From Candidatus Woesearchaeota archaeon (lineage in GTDB: Archaea; Nanobdellota; Nanobdellia; Pacearchaeales; GW2011-AR1), in assembly GCA_964419275.1 (NCBI GenBank), contig CAYQOY010000001.1, forward strand, positions 15,218 through 79,217: DNA of 64,000 nt, in the 5' to 3' direction. The position numbers and the translations under genes were made by a program. Numbering within the stretch: position 1 is the stretch's first letter; each line of letters begins with the position of its first letter. Under the pieces are notes generated by a model. It saw only the letters and a list, made by a program, of their open reading frames with translations, was not told the DNA's origin and made no database searches. Of this stretch, positions 3,059 to 62,393 are shown in pieces.

Positions 3059-3142
3059 GCGGAAATGCCGGAGTGGTCAAACGGGCTGGATTAAGGCTCC
3101 AGTGGCTTAGTGCCTGCGAAGGTTCGATCCCTTCTTTCCGCA
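3059..3142 (+). tRNA. tRNA-Leu (class II, long variable arm); anticodon reads AAG in the canonical fold
   Basis: 84 nt. Acceptor stem GCGGAAA/TTTCCGC. D-stem CCG/CGG with a 10-nt D-loop. Anticodon stem CTGGA/TCCAG with loop TTAAGGC. Variable arm GGCTTAGTGCC. T-arm GAAGG-TTCGATC-CCTTC. No encoded CCA. Confidence 0.85.
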
Positions 3143-41672: not shown

Positions 41673-42488
41673 TTAACTTCTTTTTCTTAATTTTTGCGCA
41701 GGGTCAACTCTATTTGGCTTTTGAAAAGAATTCTCTGCTAAGTCCATTAAAGGATTAAGAGTTTTGCTAAAAGATTCTTGCATCATGGACATTTCTTTTT
41801 TTATTCCTTCAAGTGTGCTAGAATAAGAGCCAACTTTATCTAGAATTGCGATTTGTAACTTGTCTAATGTCAAATCAATTCTTTTGACTCTTTCTGAAAT
41901 GTAATCTATTCTTGTCTGGGCCAATGTTTTGAATTCTTCTAATTCATCTAATCTTTTTCTTATTTCAGCAGTTTTTTCTGAGACAACTTGCTGGGCAATA
42001 TCTATCAAAGTCTCTGTGCTTGTGTTGGGCGCATATCCGGAATAAGCTTGCTGAGCGTAAGGATCTTGATACTGTTCAGGGGCATAACCCTCTTGAGGAT
42101 AAGATTGTTGAGGAACAGCAAGATAATTATCTTGTGCAGCGGGAGTGTAAGTCTCTTGAGGAGAATAATAATCTTTAGGTTCTGGAGATTGAGTTTTGTA
42201 ATTTACAGAAGGAGAATAACTTTCTTCTTGTTCTTCGTTTTCCGGAGCGTATCTTTCTTTAGAAGATTTTTCTGGCAGAGAATAAAACTCTTGAGGAGCA
42301 TAATCTTCATTCTGAGGAGGAACAAGTGAGTCCCCTCTTATTCCTGTTACTGCAGCCTTTATGCTTGCTTGATTAAGCGCGTCACTTATTGCTTTTGGTG
42401 AGATTCCTTGTTCTCTAAGATTGTAAATAATATCTTCGTCGTTCATTCCTTCTTCTCTCATTTTTGTTACTTGTTCTAGTGTTCCCAT
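41673..42488 (-). CDS. P/Y/Q-rich low-complexity protein with small N-terminal helical domain and C-terminal coiled coil
   Basis: Repeats of Y.P.E/Q (YAPQEFY, YAPENEE, YSPSVNY, YSPQETY, YAPEQYQDPYAQQAY). C-terminal heptad-like region. Divergent from the pilus ATPase gene. Confidence 0.35.
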   Translation of the reverse strand: MGTLEQVTKMREEGMNDEDIIYNLREQGISPKAISDALNQASIKAAVTGIRGDSLVPPQNEDYAPQEFYSLPEKSSKERYAPENEEQEESYSPSVNYKTQSPEPKDYYSPQETYTPAAQDNYLAVPQQSYPQEGYAPEQYQDPYAQQAYSGYAPNTSTETLIDIAQQVVSEKTAEIRKRLDELEEFKTLAQTRIDYISERVKRIDLTLDKLQIAILDKVGSYSSTLEGIKKEMSMMQESFSKTLNPLMDLAENSFQKPNRVDPAQKLRKRS

Positions 42489-42489
42489 T

Positions 42490-42810
42490 TTATTGTATTA
42501 ATTGTCTTCTTTCCAAAGGTTGAAACATTCTCGCTTGCTTAGTTAATATCTCTAAATCTTCTTTTCTTGCAAATTTAGATAACTCTCCTGAAAGAGTTTC
42601 TAAAAAAGATACCATCCTGTTTACTTCTTGTTTAAGGAGTTCAACATCTTTTTTTAATGTTAAAACTTCTTGTTTGGTTTTTTCTCTGGTTTCAATAAGA
42701 TTTTTTCCTATTAAAATCATTTGATTTTTCAGCGTTCTTTGTTTGTCATCTAAATCTGTTAATGCGCTGTTAATTCCTTGCATATCTGATGGTTCTGTTT
42801 GATTATTCAC
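42490..42810 (-). CDS. small coiled-coil protein
   Basis: 106 aa. Continuous heptad pattern (LTLKKDVELLKQEVNRMVSFLETLSGEL). Confidence 0.35.
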   Translation of the reverse strand: MNNQTEPSDMQGINSALTDLDDKQRTLKNQMILIGKNLIETREKTKQEVLTLKKDVELLKQEVNRMVSFLETLSGELSKFARKEDLEILTKQARMFQPLERRQLIQ

Positions 42811-42904: not shown

Positions 42905-45193
42905 ATGGAATTTGAACAGGGAGCAGCTCTTTATTCTTATCAAGTTAAAAAAGAGGGCGGTGAAGATGTTTTGTATATCAATTATCTAGGTGCGCCCTTT
43001 GTTCCGGATTTAGCTGGTTCTGCAGAGATTATGGAAAGAACAATGGATGCACTTATTGAAAATCCCAATGTTTCTAGAATTGTTTTTGTTCAACAAAAGA
43101 ATTACAATTACGATTTCAAAGAAACTTCTTTGATATTGGAAATTGCTCAACTTTATGTTTACTTAATTAAACAAGAACAAATACTTTCCAGAGAAAAATT
43201 AGTAACATTCAATGAACAATTTCACTCTTCAAGGTACAAGGAAATGTTTTCTTTTCTTTATTTGTTGAAAAGAGACCCGGTCTCAGCATACGCTACTCTG
43301 GAAGACACTATTGTTCACGCGAAGGTCATCTTAGAAAGAATGGGTGATGAAATGGCAAGAGACCAAGCTAATTATGTAAGACTTCTAGAGAAAATTTTCA
43401 TTTTATTAAGCTCAACAAAACTCATTTCTCAAGTCAAAGATTACATATCAGATTATTCCAAGGGAAGCAGAGAAATTTATTACCGCGTTTTCAAAGCAGA
43501 TGTAATTCCCAATTTCACTTTCACAAGGCTTGTTTCCGAATTGCCAGAAGATGCAGAGATTGTAGACCAATACAAAATTTCCAGCGGAGAGTATGATGAA
43601 TCTCTTGTTACAATTTTAAGAAGCAAAGAAGAAGCTAAAATGATTTACCATATTGTTCCTCCAGAAAATAATTTAAATGAATCTCAGAATATGCTTTTGA
43701 ATTTAGCTAAGAATGTTTTAATTGAGCACCAGCCTCGTGCAGAAGAATTTACAGACACTGAAAGAACAAGACATGTTTTTTTTAACATTGCCCGAGATTT
43801 ATTGCAAGATTTAGCGCAAACAAAAAAGATTCTCCTTAAGTATCCTGATTTAAACACCTTAGCAACAATTCTTGTAAGGCATACAATCGGTTTCGGAGTT
43901 ATCGAGGTTCTTTTGCAAGACAAAAAAATTCAGGATATTGTTTTGAATGCGCCTATTCCTTTGACTAAGATTTTTTTAAGGCATCAGGATTATGAAGAGT
44001 GTGCAACAAATATTCTTCCAAGCCAGGAAGAGGTTGACTCTTGGGCTTCAAAATTCAGAATGATTTCTGGAAGGCCTTTAGATGAAGCTAATCCTATTTT
44101 AGACACCCAATTGGAAATAGAAAAACTTAGAGCCAGAATTGCAATTGTTCAGCAGCCTCTTTCTCCAATGGGGATATCTTATGCAATTAGAAAACACAGA
44201 GAAGAGCCTTGGACATTGCCGCTGTTTATTAGAAATAGAACCCTGAATTCTTTTGCTGCAGGATTATTGAGTTTTCTTATTGATGGAGCAAGAACAATGC
44301 TTATTGCTGGAACAAGAAGCTCTGGTAAAACTTCTTTGCTGGGAAGTTTAATGCTTGAAATTTTGCCTAAAACTAGAATCATCGTTATTGAAGATTCTTT
44401 GGAGCTGCCATTGGATGCTTTAAGAAAATTAAACTACGATGTTCTCAGAATGAAGGTTCGTTCTGCTTTGCTTAAAACAACAACAGAAGTTTCAGCTTCA
44501 GATGGAATCAGAACCAGTTTAAGACTTGGAGATTCTTCTTTGATTATCGGTGAAGTTAGAAGCGCAGAAGCAAAAGCTCTTTATGAAGCAATGAGAATTG
44601 GTGCGCTTGCAAATGTCGTGGCTGGAACAATTCACGGTGCTTCACCTTATGATGTTTTTGACAGGGTTGTAAATGATTTGAATGTCCCAACAACAAGTTT
44701 CAAAGCAACAGACATAATTGTAGTTACAAATCCGATTAAATCTGCAGATGGGCTTTCTTCTAAAAAAAGAGTTTTGCTTGTAACAGAAGTTAGAAAGCAC
44801 TGGACAAAAGATCCTCTTCTTGAAAAAGGGTTTGTTGATTTGCTTAGATACAATGTTGAAAAAGATGAATTAGAACCCACAGAAGATTTGATTAATGGAG
44901 ACAGTGAAATAATCAAAAGCATTGCGTCAAGTGTTAAGGGCTGGGCTGGAAATTGGGATGCGGTTTATGATAATATTCTTTTAAGAGCTAAAATTAAGCA
45001 AGAGATAGTTGATGTTGCTGAAAGAATAGGCAATGAAAGGTTGCTTGAGGCTAAATTCAATGTTTTTGCTAATCAAGTCTTCCACAGGATTTCCAGCGAA
45101 GTTAGAGAAGAATTTGGATTGCCTTATTCAGATAAAGTTTTCCCTCGCTGGCAGAAATGGCTTAATGAGGAAATTAAGAGCGGCAAATGGTAA
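42905..45193 (+). CDS. FlaI/VirB11/GspE-family secretion ATPase with ~300-aa N-terminal extension (pilus assembly ATPase)
   Basis: Walker A AGTRSSGKTS, Asp box IIVIEDSLEL, Walker B/His box GEVRSAEA...AGTIHG. 762 aa. Confidence 0.8.
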   Translation: MEFEQGAALYSYQVKKEGGEDVLYINYLGAPFVPDLAGSAEIMERTMDALIENPNVSRIVFVQQKNYNYDFKETSLILEIAQLYVYLIKQEQILSREKLVTFNEQFHSSRYKEMFSFLYLLKRDPVSAYATLEDTIVHAKVILERMGDEMARDQANYVRLLEKIFILLSSTKLISQVKDYISDYSKGSREIYYRVFKADVIPNFTFTRLVSELPEDAEIVDQYKISSGEYDESLVTILRSKEEAKMIYHIVPPENNLNESQNMLLNLAKNVLIEHQPRAEEFTDTERTRHVFFNIARDLLQDLAQTKKILLKYPDLNTLATILVRHTIGFGVIEVLLQDKKIQDIVLNAPIPLTKIFLRHQDYEECATNILPSQEEVDSWASKFRMISGRPLDEANPILDTQLEIEKLRARIAIVQQPLSPMGISYAIRKHREEPWTLPLFIRNRTLNSFAAGLLSFLIDGARTMLIAGTRSSGKTSLLGSLMLEILPKTRIIVIEDSLELPLDALRKLNYDVLRMKVRSALLKTTTEVSASDGIRTSLRLGDSSLIIGEVRSAEAKALYEAMRIGALANVVAGTIHGASPYDVFDRVVNDLNVPTTSFKATDIIVVTNPIKSADGLSSKKRVLLVTEVRKHWTKDPLLEKGFVDLLRYNVEKDELEPTEDLINGDSEIIKSIASSVKGWAGNWDAVYDNILLRAKIKQEIVDVAERIGNERLLEAKFNVFANQVFHRISSEVREEFGLPYSDKVFPRWQKWLNEEIKSGKW

Positions 45194-45511: not shown

Positions 45512-47677
45512 ATGTCTTTACCTAATCAAAATCCGCCAAGCGTAGATGATATTTTAAAAAAATACGGAAGAAAAATTGAAAAGCAAATCAACAGTTCGCC
45601 TCTTTCTTACCAAAAAGGAAATTACAGCCAGTCTTATTCCAAGTTCAAGCAAGAAATGGCTCCAGAATGGTCAAGATATGAACGATGGTGCAACATCCTT
45701 GGAAACACTTTGAAAGTAAAAGCTTCAAAAAAAGATGAAGAAAAAATCAAGAAATACTTAGAGATAGCTCATCTTGACGTTGAACCCTGGCAAGCAATTA
45801 CTCTCGGGTTAACTGCTTTTATCGGTGTTTTTTTTCTTAATTTAATTCTTTCTTTGTCTATATTTTTTATAACAACCAGTTTTCCAGGAACATTTTTTCT
45901 TTTGATGTTAATTTTTTCTTTGTTTATTTATTCTTACGTGAACAGTTATCCAGAAAGATTTGCCAACAAATGGAGGCTTAAAGCTTCATCTCAAATGGTC
46001 CCTGCTATTTTGTATGTTGTTGTTTACATGAGGCATACTCCTAATCTTGAAAAAGCAATTGCTTTTGCCGCAGAAAATATAGAATACCCCCTTTCCTTGG
46101 ATTTAAGAAAGGTTTTTTATGATGTTGAAATAGGAAAATTCTCAACAATAAAAGAAAGCTTAGATAATTACTTGGAAGTTTGGAGAGATTATTCTCCGGA
46201 ATTTATTGAGTCTTTCCATTTAATTGAAAGCAGCCTCTTTGAGCCCGGAGAAGACAGAAGAATTTCTGTTTTAGAAAAATCTATTCAAGTTGTTTTGGAT
46301 GGTGTTTATGACAGAATGCTTAAGTTTGTTCATGAAACAAAAGGCCCTGTTCAAAATACTTACATGTTGGGAACTGTTCTTCCTGTTTTAGGATTAGCGT
46401 TGCTTCCTTTAGCTTCGGTTATGATTGCAGATATGCTTAATGCAGATCATGTTTTCATGCTTTACAACTTAATTATTCCCTTTTTAGCTTTTTTCTTAAT
46501 GAATAAATACATGATGATGCGTCCAGGAGGACATGGAGAAACTTCTTTTTTAGAAAGAAACCCTAAGTATTCTTCTTTTAAAAATAATAGACATTATGTT
46601 AAAGCTTCTTTAATCGCAATTCCTTTAATTATTCTCGGATTTTTGCCTTTGATATTTCAGTATACCCCTCTTCCCGAACTTTTAGGATTACAAAAAGATT
46701 ATACTCTTGCTCAGTTGAAATTAGGCAGTTCTGAAGATCAAATGTTTTTTGGATTTGTTGGAAAACCCGGAGAACCGGTTAAAGGTCCATTTGGAATTGG
46801 TGCATCTATTCTAAGCATGTTTGTTCCTTTAGGAATCGCTCTATTCTTTTCTATTGCTTATACCAGTAAAACTAAGGAAATGATAAAAGAAAGAAATAAA
46901 ACCAAAGAGTTAGAAAAAGAATTCAACAGTTCACTTTTCCAGCTAGGAAATAGAATCGGAAATGGAACGCCTCCAGAGCTGGTTTTTAGCAAAGTTGCTG
47001 AATCTTCCAGAGGAATGAAAACTGAGGATTTCTTTAGAAAAGTTAGCTATAATATTCAAAGACTTGGAATGAGTGTTGAAAACGCTTTGTTTGAGAACAG
47101 AAGGGGAGTTATGAATGAGTACCCTTCCGGGTTAATTGCAACAAGCATGAGAATCTTAGTTGAGGCAGCCAAAAAAGGATTGCACATTGCAGCAGTTAGT
47201 TTGATGAGCATTTCAGAGTATATTAAAAATATTCAGAAAATTAATGATAGGCTAAAGGATATGCTTGCTGAAACTGTTTCAGATATGAAAAGTAATATGA
47301 CTTTCTTAACGCCTCTTCTAGCAGGTGTTGTTGTCGGACTTTCAACAATGATCACTAATATTCTGGGAAAAGTTAATCTTTTAGAAAGTTTGCAAGACCA
47401 GGAAATTTCGGGTATTGGCAATGTCTTAAAGATGATGGATATTAAATTAATGATTCCTCCTTATTTCCTTCAACTTGCAATCGGAATTTATTTGGTTCAA
47501 ATAATCTTTATTTTAACGCAAACTTTAGTCACAATAGACGCCGGTGAAGATGAGCTTGAAAGACTTAATAAAACTGGAAAAAACCTTAAGGCCGGAATGT
47601 TGTTTTACTTTTTCACTGCAGCAATTACCACTCTGATTTTATTTGCAATATCTTCTTCAGTTTTATCTGGAATGTGA
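45512..47677 (+). CDS. FlaJ/TadC-like polytopic membrane platform protein (T2SS-F-like)
   Basis: 721 aa. Two blocks of TM helices separated by cytoplasmic helical domains. Position immediately after the FlaI-like ATPase. Confidence 0.6.
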   Translation: MSLPNQNPPSVDDILKKYGRKIEKQINSSPLSYQKGNYSQSYSKFKQEMAPEWSRYERWCNILGNTLKVKASKKDEEKIKKYLEIAHLDVEPWQAITLGLTAFIGVFFLNLILSLSIFFITTSFPGTFFLLMLIFSLFIYSYVNSYPERFANKWRLKASSQMVPAILYVVVYMRHTPNLEKAIAFAAENIEYPLSLDLRKVFYDVEIGKFSTIKESLDNYLEVWRDYSPEFIESFHLIESSLFEPGEDRRISVLEKSIQVVLDGVYDRMLKFVHETKGPVQNTYMLGTVLPVLGLALLPLASVMIADMLNADHVFMLYNLIIPFLAFFLMNKYMMMRPGGHGETSFLERNPKYSSFKNNRHYVKASLIAIPLIILGFLPLIFQYTPLPELLGLQKDYTLAQLKLGSSEDQMFFGFVGKPGEPVKGPFGIGASILSMFVPLGIALFFSIAYTSKTKEMIKERNKTKELEKEFNSSLFQLGNRIGNGTPPELVFSKVAESSRGMKTEDFFRKVSYNIQRLGMSVENALFENRRGVMNEYPSGLIATSMRILVEAAKKGLHIAAVSLMSISEYIKNIQKINDRLKDMLAETVSDMKSNMTFLTPLLAGVVVGLSTMITNILGKVNLLESLQDQEISGIGNVLKMMDIKLMIPPYFLQLAIGIYLVQIIFILTQTLVTIDAGEDELERLNKTGKNLKAGMLFYFFTAAITTLILFAISSSVLSGM

Positions 47678-48921: not shown

Positions 48922-49533
48922 ATGAAAAATAAAAAAGGATTTTTTTTAGCAGAAGAAACGATTCGGTTGATTGTAGGGGCTCTTATTTTAGTAAGTTTAG
49001 TTTCCCTTCTTGCTTTTTTATACTACTCTTCTCAACAAGATCAAGAACTTAAATTTGCAGAGAGTTCTTTAATCTATCTCGTGAGTCGTCTTGAAGCAGG
49101 AGATAAAGAGGTTATTCTTTTTGGACCTAAAGGATGGTACCTCATAGTAAACTCTGCTTGCAGGAATCTTGAAAATGTTCCTTGTATGTGCTTGCAAAAA
49201 GGACTTGGTTTTGGAGATTCTCCTGGAGAAGCCCAAAAAAGTGTTTGCATCAAAAATGATTTGAACATTAAAGTTTATCACGGCGAGACAGTATATGAAG
49301 AGATTTCCTCAGGTGTACAAGTGATTTGCGAAAGCGCTATTATGCTTAGTCCCCCTCAAAAAATCTGGGTTAAATCTTCTCCAGATAAAAAAATTCCATA
49401 TATTTTAACATTACAAGAATCTATAGAAATTTCAAATAACGCAGAATTTAAAGAGGGATGTAAATCTTCAATAGTAGAGTCCCCTTCAAATTCAAATGAA
49501 GTTAGACCTCGTATAGAAGGGAGTGATGCATAA
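48922..49533 (+). CDS. pilin-like protein with class III signal peptide
   Basis: MKNKKG|FFLAEETIRLIVGALILVSLVSLLAFLYY (Glu at +5 after the putative cleavage site). Cys-rich mature part. Confidence 0.55.
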   Translation: MKNKKGFFLAEETIRLIVGALILVSLVSLLAFLYYSSQQDQELKFAESSLIYLVSRLEAGDKEVILFGPKGWYLIVNSACRNLENVPCMCLQKGLGFGDSPGEAQKSVCIKNDLNIKVYHGETVYEEISSGVQVICESAIMLSPPQKIWVKSSPDKKIPYILTLQESIEISNNAEFKEGCKSSIVESPSNSNEVRPRIEGSDA

Positions 49534-49634
49534 TGGAATTTGAAACTTTAATAAAATATTTAATATGGATTATTTTTGTAGGGATAGCCTTAGCTGCAAT
49601 TTATTCCTTATTTAATAAAGCAGGAGTTATCTAA

Positions 49635-50630
49635 ATGAAATTCAATAAAAAAGGAGAAGTCGATGCGCAGATATTGAAAATAATCTTAGTAATAGCAGCA
49701 TTTTTGATAATTATTCTTTTAGTTATAAGATTTAATTTCACTAAGTCTATTGAGGATAATGTTTGTCGAGCTTCTATTTCTTTACAGTCTAAAGGAGGAA
49801 TTATTGGGGGCATTGCGAATAATGCTTTTTCTGCAAACTGTAAAACAAATTATGTTTGCATTTCTGGAGGAAAAAAGTGTTTGGGAATAAATCCAACAGA
49901 AACAATCAAGGTTGACGCCTCAGATAAAACTGAAATTATGAAAGCGATTGCAGATGAAATGGTTGATTGCTGGTGGGCTTATGGTGAAGGTAAAATGGCT
50001 TTTGCCGAAAGAGAAACTTGGAAAACAAATCTTGCTTGTGCAGCTTGTTCAAGAATTGTTTTTGACGAAAAAATTCAACAAACACAAGCAGAGATTTCTT
50101 ATCAAGATTTTTATAACTTTTTAACAGATTTTAAAAAATCCCCTTCTGAAACTTATTCTCAGTATATGTATAACACTAATAATGTAGACTATATCAATAA
50201 CCAATTTTCTGGAATTCGTTATAATTCAGTTTTTAGGCTTAGTTATATAAAAGATTATATCAAAAGCGAGGATTTAACTTTTAATCGAAAATTAGATTTT
50301 AAAAAAGATTATTACATCATAATTGGTTCTGCAAGACAGTCTTGGTTTGATGATAATTCTAATTGGATTTTTGGAGCAGCTGCAACAATTGTAGTTGGAG
50401 GAACATTACTTGCTACTGGCGGGACTGCTGCCCCTATTGTTATGGGAATCTCCACTGTTGCAAAAGGGACTGCGATAGGATTAGCTGGAGCAGGAACAGT
50501 TGGGGCAACTTTGATTTATAACTCGGTATTTAAACCAACAGATGATTCATACATTTTTTCTCCGATTATTTTAGAAGCTGATTCTTTAAAAGAAGTTCAG
50601 TGCCAAGAATACATAACTCTCCCCGGATAA
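49635..50630 (+). CDS. pilin-like protein with class III signal peptide and Gly-rich hydrophobic C-terminus
   Basis: MKFNKKG|EVDAQILKIILVIAAFLIIILLVI. C-terminal GAAATIVVGGTLLATGGTAAPIVMGISTVAKGTAIGLAGAGTVG. Confidence 0.55.
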   Translation: MKFNKKGEVDAQILKIILVIAAFLIIILLVIRFNFTKSIEDNVCRASISLQSKGGIIGGIANNAFSANCKTNYVCISGGKKCLGINPTETIKVDASDKTEIMKAIADEMVDCWWAYGEGKMAFAERETWKTNLACAACSRIVFDEKIQQTQAEISYQDFYNFLTDFKKSPSETYSQYMYNTNNVDYINNQFSGIRYNSVFRLSYIKDYIKSEDLTFNRKLDFKKDYYIIIGSARQSWFDDNSNWIFGAAATIVVGGTLLATGGTAAPIVMGISTVAKGTAIGLAGAGTVGATLIYNSVFKPTDDSYIFSPIILEADSLKEVQCQEYITLPG

Positions 50631-50686
50631 GCAGCTTCTTTATTTTCTATAAACATTTATTAATCTGTTTTTGTATTTTTTATAGT

Positions 50687-51106
50687 ATGAAATTATTAGG
50701 GATTAAGAGTAAAAGAGGAGAAAGTCTTTTGATGGAGAATATAATGTTTATTCTTATAACTGCTGTTTTTTTGGCAATGTTGATTACTTTTCTTGTTTCC
50801 AAGATGAATAGCCTTGCGATTTATGAAGAAATTTATGCAAAGAAAATAGCTTTGATATTAGATTATGCAAAGCCTGAGATGAAGATAGAAATTAATCTGG
50901 ATGATATCATGCCCAAAGAGAAATTAGAAAAAGAAGGCATAAGTTTTGATGGTTCTGTTTTTATTCAAGGTAATTTAGTTAATGTTAAACTTTATCCTGA
51001 AGGTAAAGGCTATTCTTATGCTTTTTTCAGTGATGTAAAAATTACTAGTTATTATTACAGTGCAGATAGAAACTCTTATGTTTTTATAATCGGGGGGTAT
51101 AACTGA
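50687..51106 (+). CDS. pilin-like protein with class III signal peptide
   Basis: MKLLGIKSKRG|ESLLMENIMFILITAVFLAMLITFLV. Start at internal ATG 50687, after the stop of the previous gene. Confidence 0.5.
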   Translation: MKLLGIKSKRGESLLMENIMFILITAVFLAMLITFLVSKMNSLAIYEEIYAKKIALILDYAKPEMKIEINLDDIMPKEKLEKEGISFDGSVFIQGNLVNVKLYPEGKGYSYAFFSDVKITSYYYSADRNSYVFIIGGYN

Positions 51107-51107
51107 A

Positions 51108-51623
51108 ATGCTCAATAAAAAAGGGGGACAAAAAGTTCTTTTTGTTTACTGGTTTGCGATATTCGTTATTATCACTGGCGGAGTGGTGTATATGGCTTCT
51201 GTTTTTTACGGAGCTCCTCACAATGTAAGAGAAGTTGAGTCCCAAGCACTTTTAGAAAGGGCTGTTGATTGTATTTCTGAAAAAGGGTATATTCATGAAG
51301 ATTTTTTAAATAAAAAAATAACTGATGAAACTCTCCTGGATTTTTGTCATTTCAATTTTGAAATTCCTTCCTCGGAAAAAAATCCGGTTGGTCAATATTA
51401 TCTTAAAATTGAATTTTTCAAATTTGATTCTTCTAAAGATTTAGCGATGGGAGAAAAAGTTTTAAGTTTAAACGCAGGAAATCCAAATCTTGATGCACCC
51501 CGGGAAATTTTAAAAGAGAATTATATTTCTCCGAAATTTGTTTATCTTTTAGACAAACAAGGCAATCCTTATGTAATTAAAATTAGCTCTATTGTGGGAA
51601 AGTTCAACGAAAATGTTAAATAA
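51108..51623 (+). CDS. pilin-like protein with class III signal peptide
   Basis: MLNKKG|GQKVLFVYWFAIFVIITGGVVYMA. Confidence 0.5.
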   Translation: MLNKKGGQKVLFVYWFAIFVIITGGVVYMASVFYGAPHNVREVESQALLERAVDCISEKGYIHEDFLNKKITDETLLDFCHFNFEIPSSEKNPVGQYYLKIEFFKFDSSKDLAMGEKVLSLNAGNPNLDAPREILKENYISPKFVYLLDKQGNPYVIKISSIVGKFNENVK

Positions 51624-52098
51624 AAAAGCTCAAGTTGGAGAAGGAATAACCTGGATTTTCACAACAATTGTGATAATTGTTTTTTTAGTTGCAGCAGTTC
51701 TTATAACTGACAAACTAGTGGAGGTAAAAGGATGGGCAACTAAAGCGCGAGAGATTTTTTCTCTTAAAGAGCAAACAGAAAAAATTGATAAGGATTTTAT
51801 TTTTTCCAAGTCTGTTTCAAGTTTTTTGTTAGTTAAAAGTTCAGACTCTGAAAAATTGTTTGGTTTGAAACCAAGAATAATCTCTTCGGGGATAGTTGAA
51901 GTTTCGGAATTTATCTTTGGAAATCTAGACCCCGTTCATTTAGGGCCAATTGGCAATCTTATCTCTGTATTAATTAATGAAGAAGCCGGAGTTTTCAGCG
52001 GTCCGCAATCAGAGAATCTCCCTTTGAAAAATTTAGAAAATCTATTCAGCACAATTAAATCTCAAGCAAATCTCGGAGGTATTGGTGAGAAATTATAA
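51613..52098 (+). CDS. pilin-like protein with class III signal peptide
   Basis: MLNKKA|QVGEGITWIFTTIVIIVFLVAAVLIT. Start set at internal ATG 51613. Confidence 0.5.
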   Translation: MLNKKAQVGEGITWIFTTIVIIVFLVAAVLITDKLVEVKGWATKAREIFSLKEQTEKIDKDFIFSKSVSSFLLVKSSDSEKLFGLKPRIISSGIVEVSEFIFGNLDPVHLGPIGNLISVLINEEAGVFSGPQSENLPLKNLENLFSTIKSQANLGGIGEKL

Positions 52099-52106
52099 TT
52101 TTTAAA

Positions 52107-52454
52107 ATGATGAATCGAAAAAAAGCAACATCAATTCCGATTATGGTTTTAGTTATAGGTGCTTTAGTGGTTTTCACTTTTGCAATAATGAGCTTTGTGA
52201 AAAATTTATCTAGCACTAGAAGCACTTCTTTAGATTTAGAGCCATTGAAAGAAGTTTATATCGATGCAGTAGGATTTTATTTTTACAGGAATCTAGGGCA
52301 GTCAAACGAAGAAGCTTTCAATAAGATAAATAACCCTGAATCAGGAAAGTCTGTGAAATTAGAAAAAGATTATTTGACAATCTCTCGTTCAAAAGGTTCT
52401 GTTTCTGTTCTTTATCGCATTAATATTAAAGAGATTTCTTCTGAAGGTGAATAA
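52107..52454 (+). CDS. small pilin-like protein with class III signal peptide (major-pilin candidate by size)
   Basis: MMNRKKA|TSIPIMVLVIGALVVFTFAIMSF. 115 aa. Confidence 0.5.
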   Translation: MMNRKKATSIPIMVLVIGALVVFTFAIMSFVKNLSSTRSTSLDLEPLKEVYIDAVGFYFYRNLGQSNEEAFNKINNPESGKSVKLEKDYLTISRSKGSVSVLYRINIKEISSEGE

Positions 52455-52509: not shown

Positions 52510-53436
52510 ATGCACAACAAAAGAGGTCAAGAATTTGGAATAAATTCTGCTGTACTTATTGTTATAGTTATCATTGTTCTTGGAATAATTGTTGCTGGAG
52601 TTTCCATGGGCTGGGAAAATTTAACTGCCTGGATTCAGCCAGACACTGTTTCTATAACTGCAGGAAAATGCTCTACTTCTTGTGGAGTGAATAATCAAAT
52701 AGATTTTTGTTCAAGTCCTAAATCCTTTAAAGCAAGCAGAGCAACAGTTCGCGCAGTTACAAGTGACGAAGCTCTTGCAACATATAACCTTTCATATAAA
52801 AATGAGCAAAAACTATTCCAATCAGTAAGAGAAGAATATCTTAAGAAAACATTTGAATATCAGATTTATAATACTAGTGCAGGAATATATCAAATTCCTA
52901 CAGATTATAATCCTACCAAATACACACATCCAGATAATAATTCTATTAATATCTCTGATTTCCTTAAAAATAAAGGTGTCACAGACCCAGAAAATTATCT
53001 TTCTCCTTCAAAGTTAATTAAACTAATTCCTAAAGCAGGTGAAGAAGGTTACTTAAAATCTAATGCAATTTTCCCAGAATTGTTTGCACTCGATGCTTCA
53101 CCAACAGACGGGAAGAGCATTAAATTTAAGAGTTTAGATTCTTCAACAGGAGAGGACACAGAACTTAGAAATACCTTAATCGAGTTAGCTAAAGATTCTG
53201 CTACCCGAAATTATTTAACAGCAGCAAAAAATTTAATGTATTATATGCAAGTAAAAGAAAAAGAAGGTTCTATAACTGGAATTAAAGTTAATGAATTTTC
53301 TTGCGCAGCTTTATCCGAACACCCTGTTTGGAAAGAATACTTCAAGAAATGTAGAGAGGATAACTTACTTTGTGAAGGGAAAAGTGCAGCAAGCAGTTCA
53401 GACTTAGAGACCTACTTAAAGATTAAACAAAGATAG
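52510..53436 (+). CDS. pilin-like protein with class III signal peptide
   Basis: MHNKRG|QEFGINSAVLIVIVIIVLGIIVAGV. Start at internal ATG 52510. Cys-containing extracellular part. Confidence 0.5.
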   Translation: MHNKRGQEFGINSAVLIVIVIIVLGIIVAGVSMGWENLTAWIQPDTVSITAGKCSTSCGVNNQIDFCSSPKSFKASRATVRAVTSDEALATYNLSYKNEQKLFQSVREEYLKKTFEYQIYNTSAGIYQIPTDYNPTKYTHPDNNSINISDFLKNKGVTDPENYLSPSKLIKLIPKAGEEGYLKSNAIFPELFALDASPTDGKSIKFKSLDSSTGEDTELRNTLIELAKDSATRNYLTAAKNLMYYMQVKEKEGSITGIKVNEFSCAALSEHPVWKEYFKKCREDNLLCEGKSAASSSDLETYLKIKQR

Positions 53437-53504
53437 ATATAGCCATTTAATCTATTTTTTATCTTTCTTAAACTCGCAAGAATTATAAACTAGATTTTAT
53501 TTTT

Positions 53505-54869
53505 TTGTTTATGAAATATCAAAGAGGACAAGCTGTAGTTTCGCATAGTTTAATTTATTTTATTATTGCTTTAATGGTTCTTGTAGGCTTGTTGGTTTAC
53601 TTAACCTTGGGCAAGGAGATTATTCCTAGGCAAGACACTAATTTAGATGATTTAGCTTCTCAGTGCGATACATTGTGTTCTCTTAAAGATCAAGAAGGAT
53701 TTTGCGAGAATATCCGTCCATTAGTAATAAAAGGCAAGAAAGTGGAAACAGAAACTTGCGCTTCTCTTGCAAGAGATTATCCAAATATCTTCCAAGGATG
53801 TTCTTTTTTTAGTTGCTCTAATTCTCAGGCATACTCTTTTTATTCCTATGTCAGTTCAGGCGGGTTTATTCAACAAAGCACAGGGTTGCTTGAAAATGGG
53901 GTTATATTAAATGTATTTAATACTCAGATGGAAGATGTCCTTCCAGATGCTTTTAAAGTTAGTCTTGATGATATAACCGAAGCAAGAGCAATATTAAATA
54001 ATAAAGGCATACTTTCAGGAGCAGACATTGATGCAGGAATTGGCCCGCGATTTTCTTCTGCACTTATTCTTTTCCAGTTGGAATATCTTGGAAAAGATAA
54101 GGTTACAGGGCTTCCAAATAAAGAAACTTTAGATGAGCTAGCAAAGTTAAAAAATTCCGACGGAACAATAAACTTGCCTTCCTTTCAAAGTTGGGGCAAA
54201 CCAGAACCCACAGATTGGAGCAAGAGTCAGGGCAGTTTAAATATAAACGACTTAGTGGTTTTGCCTTCTGCAGAAAAATCCGCTTCTGGGAAAACACTAT
54301 ACGCTTTTGTCGAAAAAGAAACAGCAATTGCTTGGGCGTTTTTAATCCGAGAAGCTATGGAAGAAACAGAGCCAGAATTAGATTTAGAAAGATTTGTTTT
54401 AGTCGATGCAGACGGGGGCTATAGGCCTTTGTATAACCAAATGGTAGTGTTGTTACAATATGGGTGTTGCAAGTATAAAGATTCTTGTAAATCTTTTCCT
54501 AGCCCTCAATTAAGCACTTATGTAAATATTCCTGCTTGGGATAATAAAGATTCTGCTAAAAACTGGATTGAGAAAAATTATAATGCTTACTGCAACAACC
54601 CTGGAGAATTGGAGTTTAATAATCTCTTATCGCAGATTAATACCGGAGCTTTAAAAGGAACAGCCACTGGAGCTCATTCAAGAGGAACAGCATTAGATTT
54701 TAATTTGAAAAATAATCAGAATATAATGTCAGATGTTCAAGGAAAATGGTTAGAAGAAAATGGGAGAAATTTTGGTTTTTGCCCTTATCTAAATAAAGAC
54801 ACACCCGAACCTAATGATTATATTGAAACTTGGCATTGGGAGTATAAAGGCGTTGATGGTTGTTCTTAA
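53505..54869 (+). CDS. pilin-like N-terminus fused to peptidoglycan-binding domain and VanY/M15-like (LAS) metallopeptidase domain
   Basis: MFMKYQRG|QAVVSHSLIYFIIALMVLVGLLVYL. PG_binding_1-like AGIGPRFSSALILFQLEYLGKDKVTGLPNKETLDEL. LAS motifs H..G.A.D (AHSRGTALDF) and E.WHWEY (IETWHWEYKG). Confidence 0.6.
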   Translation: MFMKYQRGQAVVSHSLIYFIIALMVLVGLLVYLTLGKEIIPRQDTNLDDLASQCDTLCSLKDQEGFCENIRPLVIKGKKVETETCASLARDYPNIFQGCSFFSCSNSQAYSFYSYVSSGGFIQQSTGLLENGVILNVFNTQMEDVLPDAFKVSLDDITEARAILNNKGILSGADIDAGIGPRFSSALILFQLEYLGKDKVTGLPNKETLDELAKLKNSDGTINLPSFQSWGKPEPTDWSKSQGSLNINDLVVLPSAEKSASGKTLYAFVEKETAIAWAFLIREAMEETEPELDLERFVLVDADGGYRPLYNQMVVLLQYGCCKYKDSCKSFPSPQLSTYVNIPAWDNKDSAKNWIEKNYNAYCNNPGELEFNNLLSQINTGALKGTATGAHSRGTALDFNLKNNQNIMSDVQGKWLEENGRNFGFCPYLNKDTPEPNDYIETWHWEYKGVDGCS

Positions 54870-54908: not shown

Positions 54909-55643
54909 ATGAACAAAAGAGGACAAGAGTATGTAATTACTATGATTGTAGTTCTCGCTTTAATGACTTTAATTCTTGGGCTTTATATGGGTTGGATTGA
55001 CACAAGCATTCCAGTGATAAATAGTCTTATAGGAAAAGAAAACCTTGATTTGAGAGTGCAAGAGTGTAATAATGCTTGCAATAGCATTCCTCCCCAATCA
55101 TATGCTTATTGCCAAAAAACTAGAAAGCTTACACTTCCCGATAAAAAGAAAACAGAAGGAACTTGTTACGAATTTTCTAGGGGAGAAAATATCCCCGCAG
55201 AATATAAATCTTATTTTCAATCTTGCGAAAAAATAAATTGTGAAGAATTTTTAGGTGGAGTAGAAGCAGAGGAGGAAGATGGGGGGGAAGATGAAGAAGC
55301 TGAATCGCCTTTAAATCCGGAAAATCTTATTCTCAAGATGAATGCGTATACCTTAAAAAGCGGAGAAAGTAGAGTACTAGATTTAAATAATAATAATTTA
55401 TACAAAATTATAGGATCTAATAGTGCTGCAATTCCTTTAGCAACAATCATTCTTTCTAAAGATATAAACAGCTGTGATTATCCCCCTATTAAGATTAATG
55501 CAGGAACCTATTCCCTTTTGTCAATGGTGTACGATCTTAATAACCACCAAAACGTTAAATATTTTATTGATGACACTATTGATAATGGTAAAAATCCTTG
55601 TGTTCGTTTAAATCAGTTTACCTTTAAAGAATGGCTTATCTAA
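54909..55643 (+). CDS. pilin-like protein with class III signal peptide and acidic stretch
   Basis: MNKRG|QEYVITMIVVLALMTLILGLYMGW. EAEEEDGGEDEEAES. Cys-rich. Confidence 0.5.
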   Translation: MNKRGQEYVITMIVVLALMTLILGLYMGWIDTSIPVINSLIGKENLDLRVQECNNACNSIPPQSYAYCQKTRKLTLPDKKKTEGTCYEFSRGENIPAEYKSYFQSCEKINCEEFLGGVEAEEEDGGEDEEAESPLNPENLILKMNAYTLKSGESRVLDLNNNNLYKIIGSNSAAIPLATIILSKDINSCDYPPIKINAGTYSLLSMVYDLNNHQNVKYFIDDTIDNGKNPCVRLNQFTFKEWLI

Positions 55644-55697: not shown

Positions 55698-56666
55698 ATG
55701 GCTATGAGGGGAATTGAAAACAAACGAGCGCAGGGTGCATCCATTGAAACAGTCATAGGTTTTGTTTTAGGTGCAATAGTTTTGGTTTTAGCAATTTTTT
55801 ATTTCACTGGAAACTTTGATTTAATATTAAATTTGTTTTTTAGGGAGAATGTTGATAAAATTATTGCAAAATGTGATTCTTTTTGCGATTTAAAGCAAAC
55901 ATATAACTATTGCGAGTTAAATCAAAAAGTTGTTTTTTCATCAAAAGAAAAAGAACAAGGTTCTTGCTATGCTCTTTCACTGGCTTATTCATATTTTCCT
56001 AGCTGTCCTTCTTTGGATTGTCAAACTAGAGCACGACAACTTTTAAGTGATTCAAAATATGACCTTGTCGAGGGGAATACAATGAGAGGTGATAAATCTA
56101 AGATTTCCCAAGTTCTTGAATCAGCGAAAAATCTTGAAACAACAAAATCCAGCCGTTCTTGTAATTGTGGAACAAGTTGTGATGATTATGCGGGATATTT
56201 AATTGCTGCAGCACAACAAGTAAATTCAGCTGGATTTTCCAAAGATCCTTTAGATCCTTTGTTGATTGCTGCTTTGTTGATGCAAGAAACAAATTGCAAT
56301 GCTCAAGCAGGATTTCCCTACACGACTTCTGGAAAAGCATATGGGATTGCTCAAATTGTTCCGAGTGTTTGGTGTGGACAGACGCCCCTCTTAAGTGTTC
56401 AAACATCTGCTTGTGTAAACCAGCTTAAATCTGCTGAAACAAGCATACTTTCTGCTGCAGATATTTTAAAAAAGAATTATCGAGTAGGAGATAAACTGTT
56501 TGAAGGTGCTTGTATTGTTGAGTATTCTTCTAAAAAATATTCTGGCTGGGCAGCTGCATTAAGAGGCTATGTTGGTTGGGGATGTGCTGAAGGGCATGAC
56601 TCTTATGTAACAGATGTTATACTTCTTTACACTCAATTAAAAGAAAAGTATAATTCCTTGAACTAA
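55698..56666 (+). CDS. pilin-like N-terminus fused to lytic-transglycosylase (SLT/lysozyme-like) domain
   Basis: MAMRGIENKRA|QGASIETVIGFVLGAIVLVLAIFYF. SLT motifs LLMQETNCNAQAGFP (E-S/T catalytic block) and SGKAYGIAQIVPSV (G.A.GLMQ.MP.T block). Confidence 0.55.
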   Translation: MAMRGIENKRAQGASIETVIGFVLGAIVLVLAIFYFTGNFDLILNLFFRENVDKIIAKCDSFCDLKQTYNYCELNQKVVFSSKEKEQGSCYALSLAYSYFPSCPSLDCQTRARQLLSDSKYDLVEGNTMRGDKSKISQVLESAKNLETTKSSRSCNCGTSCDDYAGYLIAAAQQVNSAGFSKDPLDPLLIAALLMQETNCNAQAGFPYTTSGKAYGIAQIVPSVWCGQTPLLSVQTSACVNQLKSAETSILSAADILKKNYRVGDKLFEGACIVEYSSKKYSGWAAALRGYVGWGCAEGHDSYVTDVILLYTQLKEKYNSLN

Positions 56667-56814: not shown

Positions 56815-57687
56815 ATGATTGAAATAATTGTTTTGGTTGCTCTTGCATTAATCTGGCTGGTATTTGCCAGTGTTCATGATGTTCGAACAACAGAAGTTCC
56901 TGACTGGCTTAATTTTTCTTTGATTGCTTTTGCACTTGGCTTCAGGTTTTTTTACTCTTTATTTGCTTTGGTAAATTTTAGTTTCTTTTTTCAAGGCTTA
57001 ATTGGATTGGGAATATTCTTTGTTTTGGGAAATTTATTTTATCATGGAAAAATGTTTGCAGGTGGAGATGCAAAGCTTATGATTGCCTTGGGAACAATTT
57101 TGCCTTTTTCCTTTAGTTTAGTTGAAAATTTGAAGCTGTTTGTCGCATTTTTGCTCGTTTTCTTTTTAACAGCTTCTATTTTTGGGATTTCCACTAGCAT
57201 TTATTTTGCAATTAAAAACAAAAACAATTTCAAAAAAGAATTCATTAAAACTTATCAGAAAAATAAAAAAATAAGCTTGGTTGTTCAAGCATTGGCTTTA
57301 ATTGTGATGATGCTTGGGTTGATTAATCAACAAGGATTATTTTATCTTGGAATTTTTGTTTTTCTAAGCCCCTTGCTTTTTAATTTTGCAAAATCTGTCG
57401 ACGAGGCTTGTATGGTTAAGCTTGTCGATTCCAATAAGCTGATGGAAGGAGACTGGCTTTACAAACCTATTTTAGTTGGAAATAAAAAAATACTTGCAAA
57501 ATGGGATGGATTAAGCAAACAAGAAATAAAGCTCATTCAAAAACATAAAAAATTTGTATGGATTAAAAAAGGAGTTCCCTTCGTGCCTGTTTTTTTGATT
57601 AGTTTTATTATACTCTGCGTTTTATTTTTGTTTTTTAAGGAATTCTTCTTGGAAACCAGATACTTTTTTCTTGCTCTGGGTGCTTAG
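56815..57687 (+). CDS. prepilin peptidase (A24 family; PibD/FlaK-like)
   Basis: Polytopic membrane protein. First catalytic Asp region SVHDVRTTEVPD. Second catalytic motif GGDAKLMIALG. Confidence 0.7.
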   Translation: MIEIIVLVALALIWLVFASVHDVRTTEVPDWLNFSLIAFALGFRFFYSLFALVNFSFFFQGLIGLGIFFVLGNLFYHGKMFAGGDAKLMIALGTILPFSFSLVENLKLFVAFLLVFFLTASIFGISTSIYFAIKNKNNFKKEFIKTYQKNKKISLVVQALALIVMMLGLINQQGLFYLGIFVFLSPLLFNFAKSVDEACMVKLVDSNKLMEGDWLYKPILVGNKKILAKWDGLSKQEIKLIQKHKKFVWIKKGVPFVPVFLISFIILCVLFLFFKEFFLETRYFFLALGA

Positions 57688-58231
57688 GATTGTCTTCAAC
57701 TGTTGATTCTTTAGAATTGTCTTTAGCTTCTTGTTTTTCATTTTTTGAATTTTCTTTTTTTTCTTGTTTATCTTCTTCTTGTTTATTCTCTTTTTCCGAG
57801 TTTGTTTTATTTTCTGATTTTTCAACTTCGTGGCTTTTAGTTTCATCTTCTTTGATGAATAAGCTTCGTACTTCTTCAAGCTCTTCTTGGGTTGCTTTGT
57901 ATCTTTCTGAAGAAATGCTTTCATCGTTGTAAACAGGAATTAAATTAATTATCCCATGTCCCTGGAAATCCACAGTGGCAATTTCAATATCCTTGGAATT
58001 TAATTTTTCTTTGAGCTGAGAGGCAAGCTTTTGGGCAAAAAGGATAATCTTGCTTTTCATTTCTTTTAGCTGAAGATGCTCTTTTGGCAAAACCATCGTA
58101 TGCCCTTTGGAAACAGGATTAATTTCCAGAACTGCCACAGCCTCTTGAATCTCAGAAATTTTGTAGCCAGCAATTTTTTCAGAAGCGATAAGGCAGAAAA
58201 CACAATTTTGATTTTCAGATTCTTGTGCCAT
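57635..58231 (-). CDS. HIT-family protein with Lys/Glu-rich C-terminal tail
   Basis: N-terminal CVFCLI. Histidine-triad-like DFQGHGIINLIP. Low-complexity tail EKENKQEEDKQEKKENSKNEKQE. Overlaps the 3' end of the prepilin peptidase gene convergently. Confidence 0.5.
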   Translation of the reverse strand: MAQESENQNCVFCLIASEKIAGYKISEIQEAVAVLEINPVSKGHTMVLPKEHLQLKEMKSKIILFAQKLASQLKEKLNSKDIEIATVDFQGHGIINLIPVYNDESISSERYKATQEELEEVRSLFIKEDETKSHEVEKSENKTNSEKENKQEEDKQEKKENSKNEKQEAKDNSKESTVEDNPKHPEQEKSIWFPRRIP

Positions 58232-61232: not shown

Positions 61233-62393
61233 ATGAAAACCTACATAACTTCTGAGTCTGTAACAGAAGGACATCCTGACAAAATTTGTGATCAAATTTC
61301 AGATGCAATACTAGATAAACTTATTGCACAGGATCCCAGTTCTAGAGTAGCTGTTGAAACTCTTGTGACAACTGGGAGTGTTCACGTTGCTGGAGAAGTT
61401 ACCAGCGAAGGATTTGCAGATATTCATGAGATTGTAAGAAATACCCTTAAAAGAATAGGATATAATGATCCTGAGTTTGGAATGGATTATGAAGATGCAG
61501 GCGTTTGGGTAAGTATTCATTCTCAAAGTCTAGATATTTCTCAAGGAGTTAATGAAAAAACAAACGGAGAACAAAAAGAACAAGGTGCAGGAGATCAAGG
61601 AATGATGTACGGCTTTGCTTGCAATGAAACTCCTGAATTAATGCCTATGCCGATTATTTATGCTCATAAACTCGCAAAAGCTCTTGCGAGTTTCAGAAGA
61701 TCTGGCGCGTTAAATAAGGGATTGGGCCCAGATGGAAAAACTCAAGTTACAGTGGAATATGAAAACGGAAAACCAAAAAGAATCGACACTATTGTAATTG
61801 CTCAACAGCATAAAAAACAAGTTAGTGAGAATAAGCTAAGAAAAGAAATTTACAGAAAAGTTATTGTACCGGTTTGTGGAAAGTTAATTGATAGACAAAC
61901 TAAAATTCATATTAACGCTACAGGAAGATTTGTCATCGGTGGGCCTGAAGGAGATACCGGATTAACTGGAAGAAAAATTATTGTGGACAGCTATGGGGGC
62001 GTTGGAAGAGTCGGCGGAGGATGTTTTAGTGGAAAAGATCCTTCAAAAGTCGACAGAAGTGGTGCTTATATTGCAAGGCATATCGCAAAGAATATCGTTG
62101 CTGCAAAACTTGCTGACAAATGTGAGATTCAAATAAGTTATGCGATTGGAATAGCCAAGCCTGTTTCAGTTCACATAGACTGCTTTAATACAAATAAAAT
62201 TCCAGAAGAGCAAATAAGAAAAATTGTTGCTGAAACATTTGACTTGCGCCCTAAGGCAGTTATTGAGTATCTTGATTTGAAAAAACCAATTTATGAAAAA
62301 ACAGCCAGCTACGGCCATTTTGGAAGAAGCGAATTTTCTTGGGAAAAAACCGACAAAGTTGAAGAATTGAGAAAAAAAGCAGGTTTAGCTTAA
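61233..62393 (+). CDS. metK: S-adenosylmethionine synthetase, bacterial/eukaryotic MetK type
   Basis: [97 protein letters not shown]. Near-identical blocks to E. coli MetK. Confidence 0.9.

Follow-up and report, generated by a model that had tools for sequence, protein, structure and literature searches.

What does a bacterial type of cell wall peptidase do at the end of an archaeal prepilin? The question is raised by a gene at positions 53505 to 54869 (plus strand) of a 64,000-nucleotide (nt) stretch of DNA, here called the window, from contig CAYQOY010000001.1 (positions 15,218 to 79,217 of the forward strand; assembly GCA_964419275.1, Candidatus Woesearchaeota archaeon, placed in the Pacearchaeales by GTDB). 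An earlier note, made from the sequence alone, described the product as a pilin-like N terminus fused to a peptidoglycan (PG)-binding domain and a VanY/M15 peptidase domain. Our favored answer is that the product is a minor, modular type IV pilin from a member of the Pacearchaeota (DPANN archaea) and displays a captured antibacterial cell wall enzyme, a reading to which we give a probability of roughly 0.55. The three-part architecture taken alone (prepilin, PG-binding-like domain, VanY-type peptidase) is held with high confidence.

Open reading frame (ORF) calling gave a protein of 454 amino acids (aa) starting from a TTG at 53505. We preferred the ATG at 53511, two codons further on, because all homologs (an identical NCBI protein and three metagenomic homologs) start at MKYQRGQ; this ATG is probably the true start, giving a product of 452 aa. 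Residues are numbered with the Met encoded at 53511 as 1. An AT-rich element at 53470 to 53510 carries TTATAAA about 25 nt upstream of this ATG, which would be compatible with the gene's having its own archaeal TATA-type promoter and a very short leader. The gene and its parts are as follows.

53511..54869, plus strand: focal gene, modular prepilin with PG-binding-like domain and VanY/LdcB-like zinc peptidase, 452 aa from the ATG
53511..53606, plus strand: class III signal, leader MKYQRG with predicted cleavage after G6, then hydrophobic helix QAVVSHSLIYFIIALMVLVGLLVYLT (from sequence, family conservation, and model)
53634..53822, plus strand: 6-cysteine (6-Cys) module with C52, C56, C65, C83, C97, and C102 (from profile matches to small pilin-like proteins)
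53958..54155, plus strand: PG_binding_1-like domain, about aa 150 to 215 (at family and fold level)
54243..54860, plus strand: VanY/LdcB-like M15B catalytic domain, about aa 245 to 450 (from profiles and alignments)
54441..54668, plus strand: mostly helical insertion of about 76 to 80 aa between GYR..Q and H-x6-D (from alignment and model)

The focal protein matched the Pfam VanY family (PF02557) above the gathering cutoff (29.9 bits versus 25; E value, 5.6e-7), which bears out the M15/VanY assignment in the earlier note. The match spans only positions 64 to 131 of the 132 in the profile, because an insertion of about 80 aa (approximately aa 311 to 386) splits the catalytic domain between GGYRPLYNQ and HSRGTALD. 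The same family was matched by 29 of 32 homologs, and in a 32-sequence alignment R305, H389, A394, D396, W413, E439, and H442 were invariant. When the focal protein was compared to the PDB with phmmer, AHSRGTALD and ETWHW aligned with the SEHxxGxAxD and EPWH motifs of VanY-B (E = 2e-3). The 32-sequence profile matched Bacillus subtilis LdcB/YodJ (1.9e-13), pneumococcal DacB/LdcB (3.5e-13), and VanY-B (3.5e-12), aligning with the GYRSY..Q, SEHxxGxAxD, and EPWH motifs of LdcB/DacB/VanY-B; a profile built from four archaeal sequences alone matched LdcB (1.9e-4) and VanY (7.7e-4) in the PDB.

In LdcB of Streptococcus pneumoniae, zinc is bound by His153, Asp160, and His207; the catalytic residue is Glu204, and Arg120 forms a salt bridge with the carboxylate of the substrate (PMC4087270). 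The equivalent residues of the focal protein are H389, D396, H442, E439, and R305, respectively. They lie in GGYRPLYNQ (54414 to 54440, with R305), HSRGTALD (54675 to 54698, with H389 and D396), and ETWHWEY (54825 to 54845, with E439 and H442). The strings that the earlier note quoted are thus present, including its PG-binding-like segment (within 53958 to 54155), and in the profiles H..G.A.D and E.WH fall on the zinc ligands and the catalytic Glu of LdcB/VanY. The focal catalytic domain has the VanY/LdcB fold. None of the NCBIfam LdcB or VanY models was matched by the focal protein at E ≤ 0.01; judged by these matches, the focal enzyme is a member of the M15B superfamily and of the Pfam family but not an ortholog of LdcB or of resistance VanY. 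Helices were predicted within the insertion (residues 307 to 377), and the insertion is kept in bacterial toxin-type homologs, whose alignments span aa 157 to 443 in a single stretch.

The claim of a PG_binding_1 domain fared less evenly. On the focal protein alone, Pfam PG_binding_1 (PF01471) scored 13.2 bits (E = 0.1), below the gathering score of 23. Through homologous intermediates and by its fold, the segment is a PG_binding_1-like domain. The claim therefore stands at the level of family and fold and falls short for the focal sequence taken singly and for a profile limited to archaeal members.

At the other end of the protein, the N terminus MKYQRG|QAVVSHSLIYFIIALMVLVGLLVYL has R at position −2, G at −1, and Q at +1, followed by about 25 hydrophobic residues, and the structure prediction placed a helix over residues 5 to 33. 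The [KR][GA]Q motif is kept throughout the pilin family, Q at +1 being almost invariant. Residues 1 to 105 matched a Pacearchaeota/Nanoarchaeota family made up mostly of pilin-like proteins of about 108 to 190 aa (profile E values down to 1e-9); the family profile of the pilin part gave a best E value of 3e-56, and one of the small pilin-like homologs is annotated as Nanoarchaeota. The consensus of the small-pilin family, NKRGQGLS...GFTxGW...NVD..C..AC....YDFC...C...C...C, has six conserved cysteines, and in the predicted structure of a paralog the 6-Cys module reached confidence (pLDDT) values of 80 to 97. The class III (prepilin) signal named in the earlier note is confirmed by the motif, by its recurrence in ten consecutive ORFs, and by an A24 prepilin peptidase gene 2 kb downstream; judged on the translations, such a run of class III patterns beside an A24 gene is far beyond chance. 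Removal of the MKYQRG leader and incorporation of the focal protein into a filament are predicted from these features. All three parts of the architecture originally described therefore hold up: the two peptidase motifs align with the zinc site of the M15 family, and the PG-binding segment has its hit through family members.

How common is such a protein? An exhaustive profile search of 1.84 billion representatives gave 75 matches, of which two were full-length clusters at 50% identity (P0002 and P0005; P numbers are our handles for proteins), about 40 matched only aa ~157 to 443, and about 30 matched only the pilin part. A word-indexed protein search returned three close relatives only, and the three metagenomic homologs are 89%, 63%, and 39% identical to the focal protein. 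Only four archaeal sequences among the matches join a class III signal to the VanY motifs, and they form one clade in a neighbor-joining tree. A profile scan of genome contigs with the archaeal alignment found two Acidobacteriota VanY-like loci and no new fusions. The fusion is present in four or more independent assemblies (39% to 89% identity), with all the catalytic residues and the six cysteines kept. A look-up with the exact focal protein returned no record; P0002, P0003, and P0005 led to loci, of which those for P0005 were shorter than 2 kb and uninformative. An inactive, adhesin-only relic was rejected, since none of the four archaeal sequences has lost a catalytic residue.

Where the C-terminal part came from is suggested by its bacterial relatives. 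The effector module (aa ~157 to 443, insertion included) aligns in one stretch to bacterial proteins with 23% to 35% identity and E values down to 1.7e-25. Directly N-terminal to the module in P0012 is an Rhs-associated core (Rhs_assc_core, 84.7 bits versus a cutoff of 32.5); P0008 and P0017 start with the end of an Rhs core, and P0032, P0037, P0065, P0067, and P0068 start with YD-repeat or core-end motifs. One module-bearing homolog carries the PAAR-like DUF4280, and several have long helical N termini. We considered an LXG identity, and hence delivery by a type VII secretion system (T7SS), for the helical N termini of P0006, P0007, P0013, P0014, and P0025 and rejected it: there was no Pfam LXG match, and P0007 gave a weak ESAT-6-like match (27 bits versus a cutoff of 100). 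From these searches, Rhs and PAAR-like domains are the only delivery domains that we claim for the bacterial relatives. VanY-like domains are a recognized cargo of polymorphic toxin systems (PMC12419801), and the focal effector module is homologous to such C-terminal toxin cargo.

The alignments are unbroken across the insertion, so the archaeal module derives from this Rhs-type toxin subfamily and not from a housekeeping LdcB. Transfer from a bacterium to the archaeon is favored, because many diverse bacterial representatives stand against one small archaeal clade. The focal protein itself has a prepilin N terminus and no N-terminal Rhs, PAAR, or LXG trafficking domain, and no adjacent immunity gene was seen, the gene downstream being another pilin paralog. 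By these features it carries toxin-type cargo but is not a member of the polymorphic toxin systems.

The prepilin end of the protein fits its surroundings, which are a pilus operon. The genes are listed here with their evidence; L numbers are our handles for syntenic loci.

42905..45193, plus strand: pilus assembly ATPase of the T2SSE/VirB11 family (Pfam T2SSE, E = 8.5e-14; syntenic in L013)
45512..47677, plus strand: 721-aa polytopic membrane protein, probably a TadC/FlaJ-like platform (Pfam T2SSF, E = 1.1e-4, just below the cutoff; adjoins the ATPase, position conserved)
48922..52454, plus strand: six prepilin-like ORFs (starting at 48922, 49635, 50600, 51108, 51592, and 52107), each with a [KR][GA] leader and a hydrophobic helix (from translations)
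52510..53436, plus strand: 6-Cys pilin paralog, 308 aa, C-terminal domain without assignment (identical to P0098)
54909..55643, plus strand: 6-Cys pilin paralog, 244 aa, acidic linker and C-terminal domain without assignment (identical to P0105)
55698..56666, plus strand: 6-Cys pilin paralog, 322 aa, lysozyme/SLT-like C-terminal domain, QETNC...YGIAQI...ALRGYVGWG (weak SLT match, profile)
56815..57687, plus strand: A24 prepilin peptidase, PibD/FlaK-like (Pfam Peptidase_A24, E = 6.5e-13; syntenic in L001, L010, L013, and L014)

Between 48922 and 56666 there are ten ORFs with an N-terminal [KR][GA] followed by about 20 hydrophobic residues; by BLAST classification, none of the six at 48922 to 52454 belongs to the 6-Cys family. 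The gene order (ATPase, platform, row of small pilin-like genes, A24 peptidase, HIT, aEF-1beta, RPA, RadA) is kept in five other loci (L001, L002, L010, L013, and L014), all from metagenomes or metagenome-assembled genomes (MAGs), L014 being a Nanoarchaeota MAG. Divergent pilins in DPANN pilus loci have been noted before (PMC6393860). The window is archaeal, encoding Orc1/Cdc6, both PolD subunits, RPA, and RadA, and its RadA, Orc1/Cdc6, RPA, and Hef helicase have mates in 90%-identity clusters annotated as Candidatus Pacearchaeota archaeon, which makes the source a pacearchaeote or something very closely related (DPANN). The G+C content along the window is uniform, about 0.31 to 0.36.

These findings bear on whether the fusion could be an artefact, that is, a chimeric assembly, a contaminating bacterial contig (for example, from the candidate phyla radiation), or a decaying, inactive transferred gene. 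The bacterial type of the catalytic module and the mere handful of homologs would fit such an origin. The same fusion recurs, however, in the independent assemblies with its catalytic residues and cysteines conserved, the locus is syntenic with archaeal genes (aEF-1beta, RPA, and RadA) in L001 and L002, and the contig combines uniform G+C content with Orc1/Cdc6 and PolD. Conservation over independent assemblies and synteny largely refute an assembly chimera or a bacterial contig, and we regard an artefact of any of these kinds as extremely improbable.

The focal gene is one of four consecutive 6-Cys paralogs in the window (52510 to 53436, 53511 to 54869, 54909 to 55643, and 55698 to 56666) that differ in their C-terminal domains. 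Those of the 308-aa and 244-aa paralogs have no detectable homology to anything annotated. The relatives L013 and L014 have a single small 6-Cys pilin (167 and 152 aa) just upstream of the prepilin peptidase gene, and the more distant L010 has two forms of the 6-Cys pilin, one of 457 aa and an SLT-like one of 342 aa. There was no VanY form in L010, and the 3′ end of its upstream neighbor is not VanY-like. Because relatives have a single small pilin where the window has four enlarged paralogs, the resident pilin gene has undergone duplication, and its copies have gained different C-terminal modules.

One of these modules may also act on cell walls. The protein encoded at 55698 to 56666 matched Pfam SLT at E = 5e-3, below the cutoff; its ortholog P0026 has a precomputed SLT match marked as weak (E ≤ 1e-3); and a four-sequence profile of the lysozyme-like region aligned to the Glu35...GILQINSRYWC segment of C-type lysozymes with an E value of about 0.02. 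The predicted structure of this C-terminal part was of low confidence. From the motifs and alignments, the domain is probably a lysozyme-superfamily muramidase or lytic transglycosylase.

Is the focal protein a pilus subunit at all, or could the class III signal serve only for export and membrane anchoring, as in the bindosome, leaving a surface-anchored or released enzyme that is not part of a filament? The archaeal prepilin peptidase PibD is not confined to pilins and also cleaves, for example, substrate-binding proteins (PMC4858521); no pilin fold is recognizable in the 6-Cys module; and a subunit of 452 aa would be bulky for the body of a filament. On the other hand, the N-terminal 105 aa are homologous to the small proteins that occupy the pilin slot of the conserved ATPase-platform-peptidase operon, and bacteria do incorporate large modular pilins into filaments (PMC8179133). 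We consider export without assembly the strongest competitor and still unlikely.

If the focal protein is a modular pilin, its path to the surface can be outlined. The A24 prepilin peptidase encoded 2 kb downstream would remove the leader MKYQRG, cleaving after Gly6, and the hydrophobic N-terminal helix and the 6-Cys module would fix the protein in the membrane, allowing the ATPase and platform of the operon to load it into the pilus or onto its tip, as happens with bacterial modular pilins (PMC8179133). The C-terminal effector (PG_binding_1-like domain plus VanY/LdcB-type zinc peptidase) would thereby be displayed outside the cell. There, the PG-binding domain would dock on murein; H389, D396, and H442 would bind zinc, E439 would be the catalytic Glu, and R305 would hold the carboxylate of the substrate. 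The predicted target is the stem peptide of bacterial PG, and most likely the C-terminal D-Ala would be taken off pentapeptide or tetrapeptide stems; a VanY/LdcB-type carboxypeptidase serving as toxin cargo would leave fewer stems available for cross-linking. Together with the neighboring lysozyme/SLT-like pilin, the focal peptidase might attach to the wall of a bacterial partner or prey cell and weaken it locally. On this account the effector module would have come by capture from Rhs-type polymorphic toxins of bacteria and been joined to a duplicate of the resident pilin.

Whose wall would this be? As far as we know, the Pacearchaeota have no murein. Because of this, and because relatives have a working operon that lacks the gene, we think it most plausible that the enzyme acts on a foreign wall, namely, that of a bacterium.

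The enzyme might instead be aimed at a polymer of archaea, be it the envelope of its own cell or, where the host is a methanogen, that host's pseudomurein, and so help to assemble the pilus or to attach to an archaeal host. To our knowledge, every DPANN host cultured to date is an archaeon, and in bacteria a wall hydrolase dedicated to assembly is often found in pilus and secretion operons. Pseudomurein stem peptides, however, contain L-amino acids only, and the pseudomurein endoisopeptidases we know of are cysteine peptidases. The active-site residues of the focal enzyme are those of enzymes specific for a C-terminal D-Ala, its binding domain is PG_binding_1-like, and the homologous operons of relatives work without the gene. 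A pseudomurein-directed enzyme was rejected, and an archaeal target in general is very unlikely.

A bacterial substrate need not mean a bacterial host. The enzyme and its lysozyme-like paralog might digest free PG debris or muropeptides, with no specific bacterial host, to obtain D-Ala, amino acids, and amino sugars for a DPANN cell that is auxotrophic. The Pacearchaeota have very limited biosynthesis and are thought to live on scavenged compounds (PMC8204110), a carboxypeptidase would free D-Ala, and the window also encodes a 1,710-aa secreted subtilase. Against this, the closest relatives of the module are toxin cargo domains and not recycling enzymes, and a pilin tether and a PG-binding domain suit an intact wall better than soluble fragments. 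No genes for uptake or catabolism of D-Ala or muropeptides were seen near the locus, although no systematic search was made. We find nutrient scavenging improbable, though less so than an archaeal target.

A pilus with a peptidase fusion suggests that this tiny symbiotic archaeon grips or breaches bacteria by its pili. A bolder version, that a pilus armed with PG-degrading subunits (a VanY/LdcB-type peptidase taken from bacterial Rhs toxins and a lysozyme-like enzyme) works on contact, fastening the cell to living bacteria, opening their walls, and letting it feed on them or kill them, we offer tentatively and with distinctly less confidence than the reading of the gene as an enzyme-bearing pilin.

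Several points weigh against a wall-directed pilin. Signal cleavage, pilus incorporation, enzyme activity and specificity, and the bacterial target are steps that we infer from sequence. The globular 6-Cys module matched no known pilin fold in the PDB and no pilin hidden Markov model (HMM), so that it is the signal motif, the surrounding operon, and homology to small paralogs that justify the label "pilin." The PG-binding domain is below threshold in the archaeal sequences themselves, and the archaeal-only profile gave no PG-binding match in the PDB; the SLT/lysozyme assignment of the neighboring pilin is weak. The wider syntenic locus in relatives (L010, L013, and L014) lacks a VanY pilin, so that the focal gene is an accessory of a narrow lineage. 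The characterized VanY/LdcB enzymes are carboxypeptidases, which trim stems rather than lyse walls, and the ~80-aa insertion could change the specificity, for example, to that of an endopeptidase. Finally, with a view of 64 kb of the genome, the organism might in principle still make murein-like polymers of its own.

Other features of the window and its syntenic loci were observed in passing. Two small genes at 41673 to 42810 (minus strand), divergent from the pilus ATPase gene, encode a 106-aa coiled-coil-like protein and a 271-aa protein with a Pro/Gln/Tyr-rich low-complexity center, and they may serve the pilus locus in a regulatory or accessory role. The HIT-family protein at 57635 to 58231 (minus strand) has a long Lys/Glu-rich C-terminal tail, and the 3′ end of its gene overlaps the convergent prepilin peptidase gene by about 50 nt. 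In L014 (15198 to 17684), RadA is 828 aa long and contains an intein with a LAGLIDADG endonuclease; the RadA of the window (354 aa) has no intein. The 1,710-aa protein at 24630 to 29762 (plus strand) combines an S8 subtilase domain with an I9 propeptide and a weak match to FG-GAP repeats; it is probably a large protease that the same organism secretes or carries on its surface. L001 (8720 to 9880, syntenic to 61233 to 62393, plus strand, of the window) encodes an S-adenosylmethionine synthetase of the bacterial/eukaryotic type (S-AdoMet_synt_N/M/C), not the archaeal type; judged on the L001 copy, it may be another bacterial-type gene in the archaeon. A 5S rRNA gene (2830 to 2944, minus strand) adjoins a tRNA-Leu(AAG) gene (3059 to 3142, plus strand), and no 16S or 23S rRNA gene was detected within the 64-kb window.

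What would the favored reading mean? It is still debated whether bacteria serve as hosts for any DPANN archaea, and the published hints are lytic-transglycosylase domains (PMC8204110, PMC9723730). The locus described here is a sharper and directly testable handle: two wall-directed enzymes joined to pilin modules in a conserved pacearchaeote pilus operon, one of them demonstrably descended from the cargo of interbacterial toxins. If the bolder version is true, no molecular mechanism by which an archaeon lives on a bacterial host would have been described earlier, and polymorphic-toxin cargo would have a new delivery route, with a pilin replacing Rhs, the type VI secretion system (T6SS), or T7SS. 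The locus also shows toxin modules crossing between domains of life and being mounted on a different delivery scaffold. The focal enzyme, a diverged VanY type whose insertion is unexplored, could have antibacterial use as well.

Each ingredient has a precedent (modular pilins on one side, archaeal and DPANN PG hydrolases on the other); the combination is very rare, and no precedent for it was found. In the literature searched, mostly outside subscription journals, there was no fusion of a pilin to VanY or PG-binding domains and no toxin cargo on a pilin, in either Bacteria or Archaea. The view in the earlier note that a murein peptidase on a prepilin scaffold is unusual in any organism was overstated, since grafted modular pilins, including some with peptidase modules, are widespread in bacteria (PMC8179133) and archaeal class III signals also export nonpilins. 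Its companion remark, that such an enzyme is unexpected in an archaeon, needs softening: PG hydrolases (PMC12352652) and lytic transglycosylases of Pacearchaeota and Woesearchaeota (PMC8204110, PMC9723730) have already been reported. The toxin ancestry, the lysozyme-like neighboring pilin, the paralog expansion, and the ~80-aa insertion in the catalytic domain had been missed in that first reading.

Among the enzymes themselves, the nearest characterized ones are the LdcB/DacB LD-carboxypeptidases and the VanY/VanXY DD-peptidases (MEROPS M15B, LAS). The focal enzyme differs from them by its helical insertion of ~80 aa and by the PG_binding_1-like domain and pilin that precede it; its host is archaeal, and its gene lies outside any context of wall maturation or vancomycin resistance. 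The Rhs/PAAR-type toxins (for example, P0012, P0008, P0017, and P0006) share the whole effector module (aa ~157 to 443), insertion included. Their delivery part is an Rhs core or a PAAR-like or helical N terminus, whereas that of the focal protein is a class III prepilin, for which no immunity gene would be expected.

Other archaea also make enzymes against the bacterial wall. Archaeal PG hydrolases are documented, for example, Woldo and Danwoldo of Halogranum, in a study that considers Sec and Tat signals only (PMC12352652). Large proteins with murein-type lytic transglycosylase domains in Pacearchaeota and Woesearchaeota have been read as hints of bacterial hosts or of "vampiristic" lifestyles (PMC8204110, PMC9723730, PMC10936187). 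Like the focal protein, these are archaeon-encoded secreted enzymes against a bacterial polymer, read as serving antagonism toward, or attachment to, bacterial hosts. They differ in having Sec or Tat signals or being giant surface proteins, and they belong to other classes (M23, glucosaminidase, and GH23); in these four papers, pili and pilins are not mentioned in connection with the enzymes.

For the delivery scaffold there are two parallels. The bindosome of Sulfolobus, like the focal protein, involves functional proteins whose export depends on a prepilin-type signal and on an assembly system that is dedicated to them and resembles that of type IV pili (PMC4858521); its cargo, unlike the focal hydrolase, consists of solute-binding (sugar) proteins for uptake and has no sequence relationship to it. 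The closer parallel is with the modular pilins that are widespread in bacteria, where an InterPro survey counted 264 architectures, among them the vWA domain of PilB and the lectin of PilC in Streptococcus sanguinis, and where peptidase modules (S74 and M26) were noted (PMC8179133). In the portion of the supplement text of that survey available to us, no VanY, PG_binding, or SLT InterPro entries occur among these pilins. Like the focal protein, bacterial modular pilins combine a small pilin module with a bulky functional module and are encoded among minor pilins. In contrast, the focal signal is of the archaeal type ([KR]G|Q, with no Glu5), its pilin module is an unrelated 6-Cys domain, and the graft is a cell wall peptidase. 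The focal gene would thus extend the modular-pilin principle to archaea and to wall-degrading enzymatic cargo.

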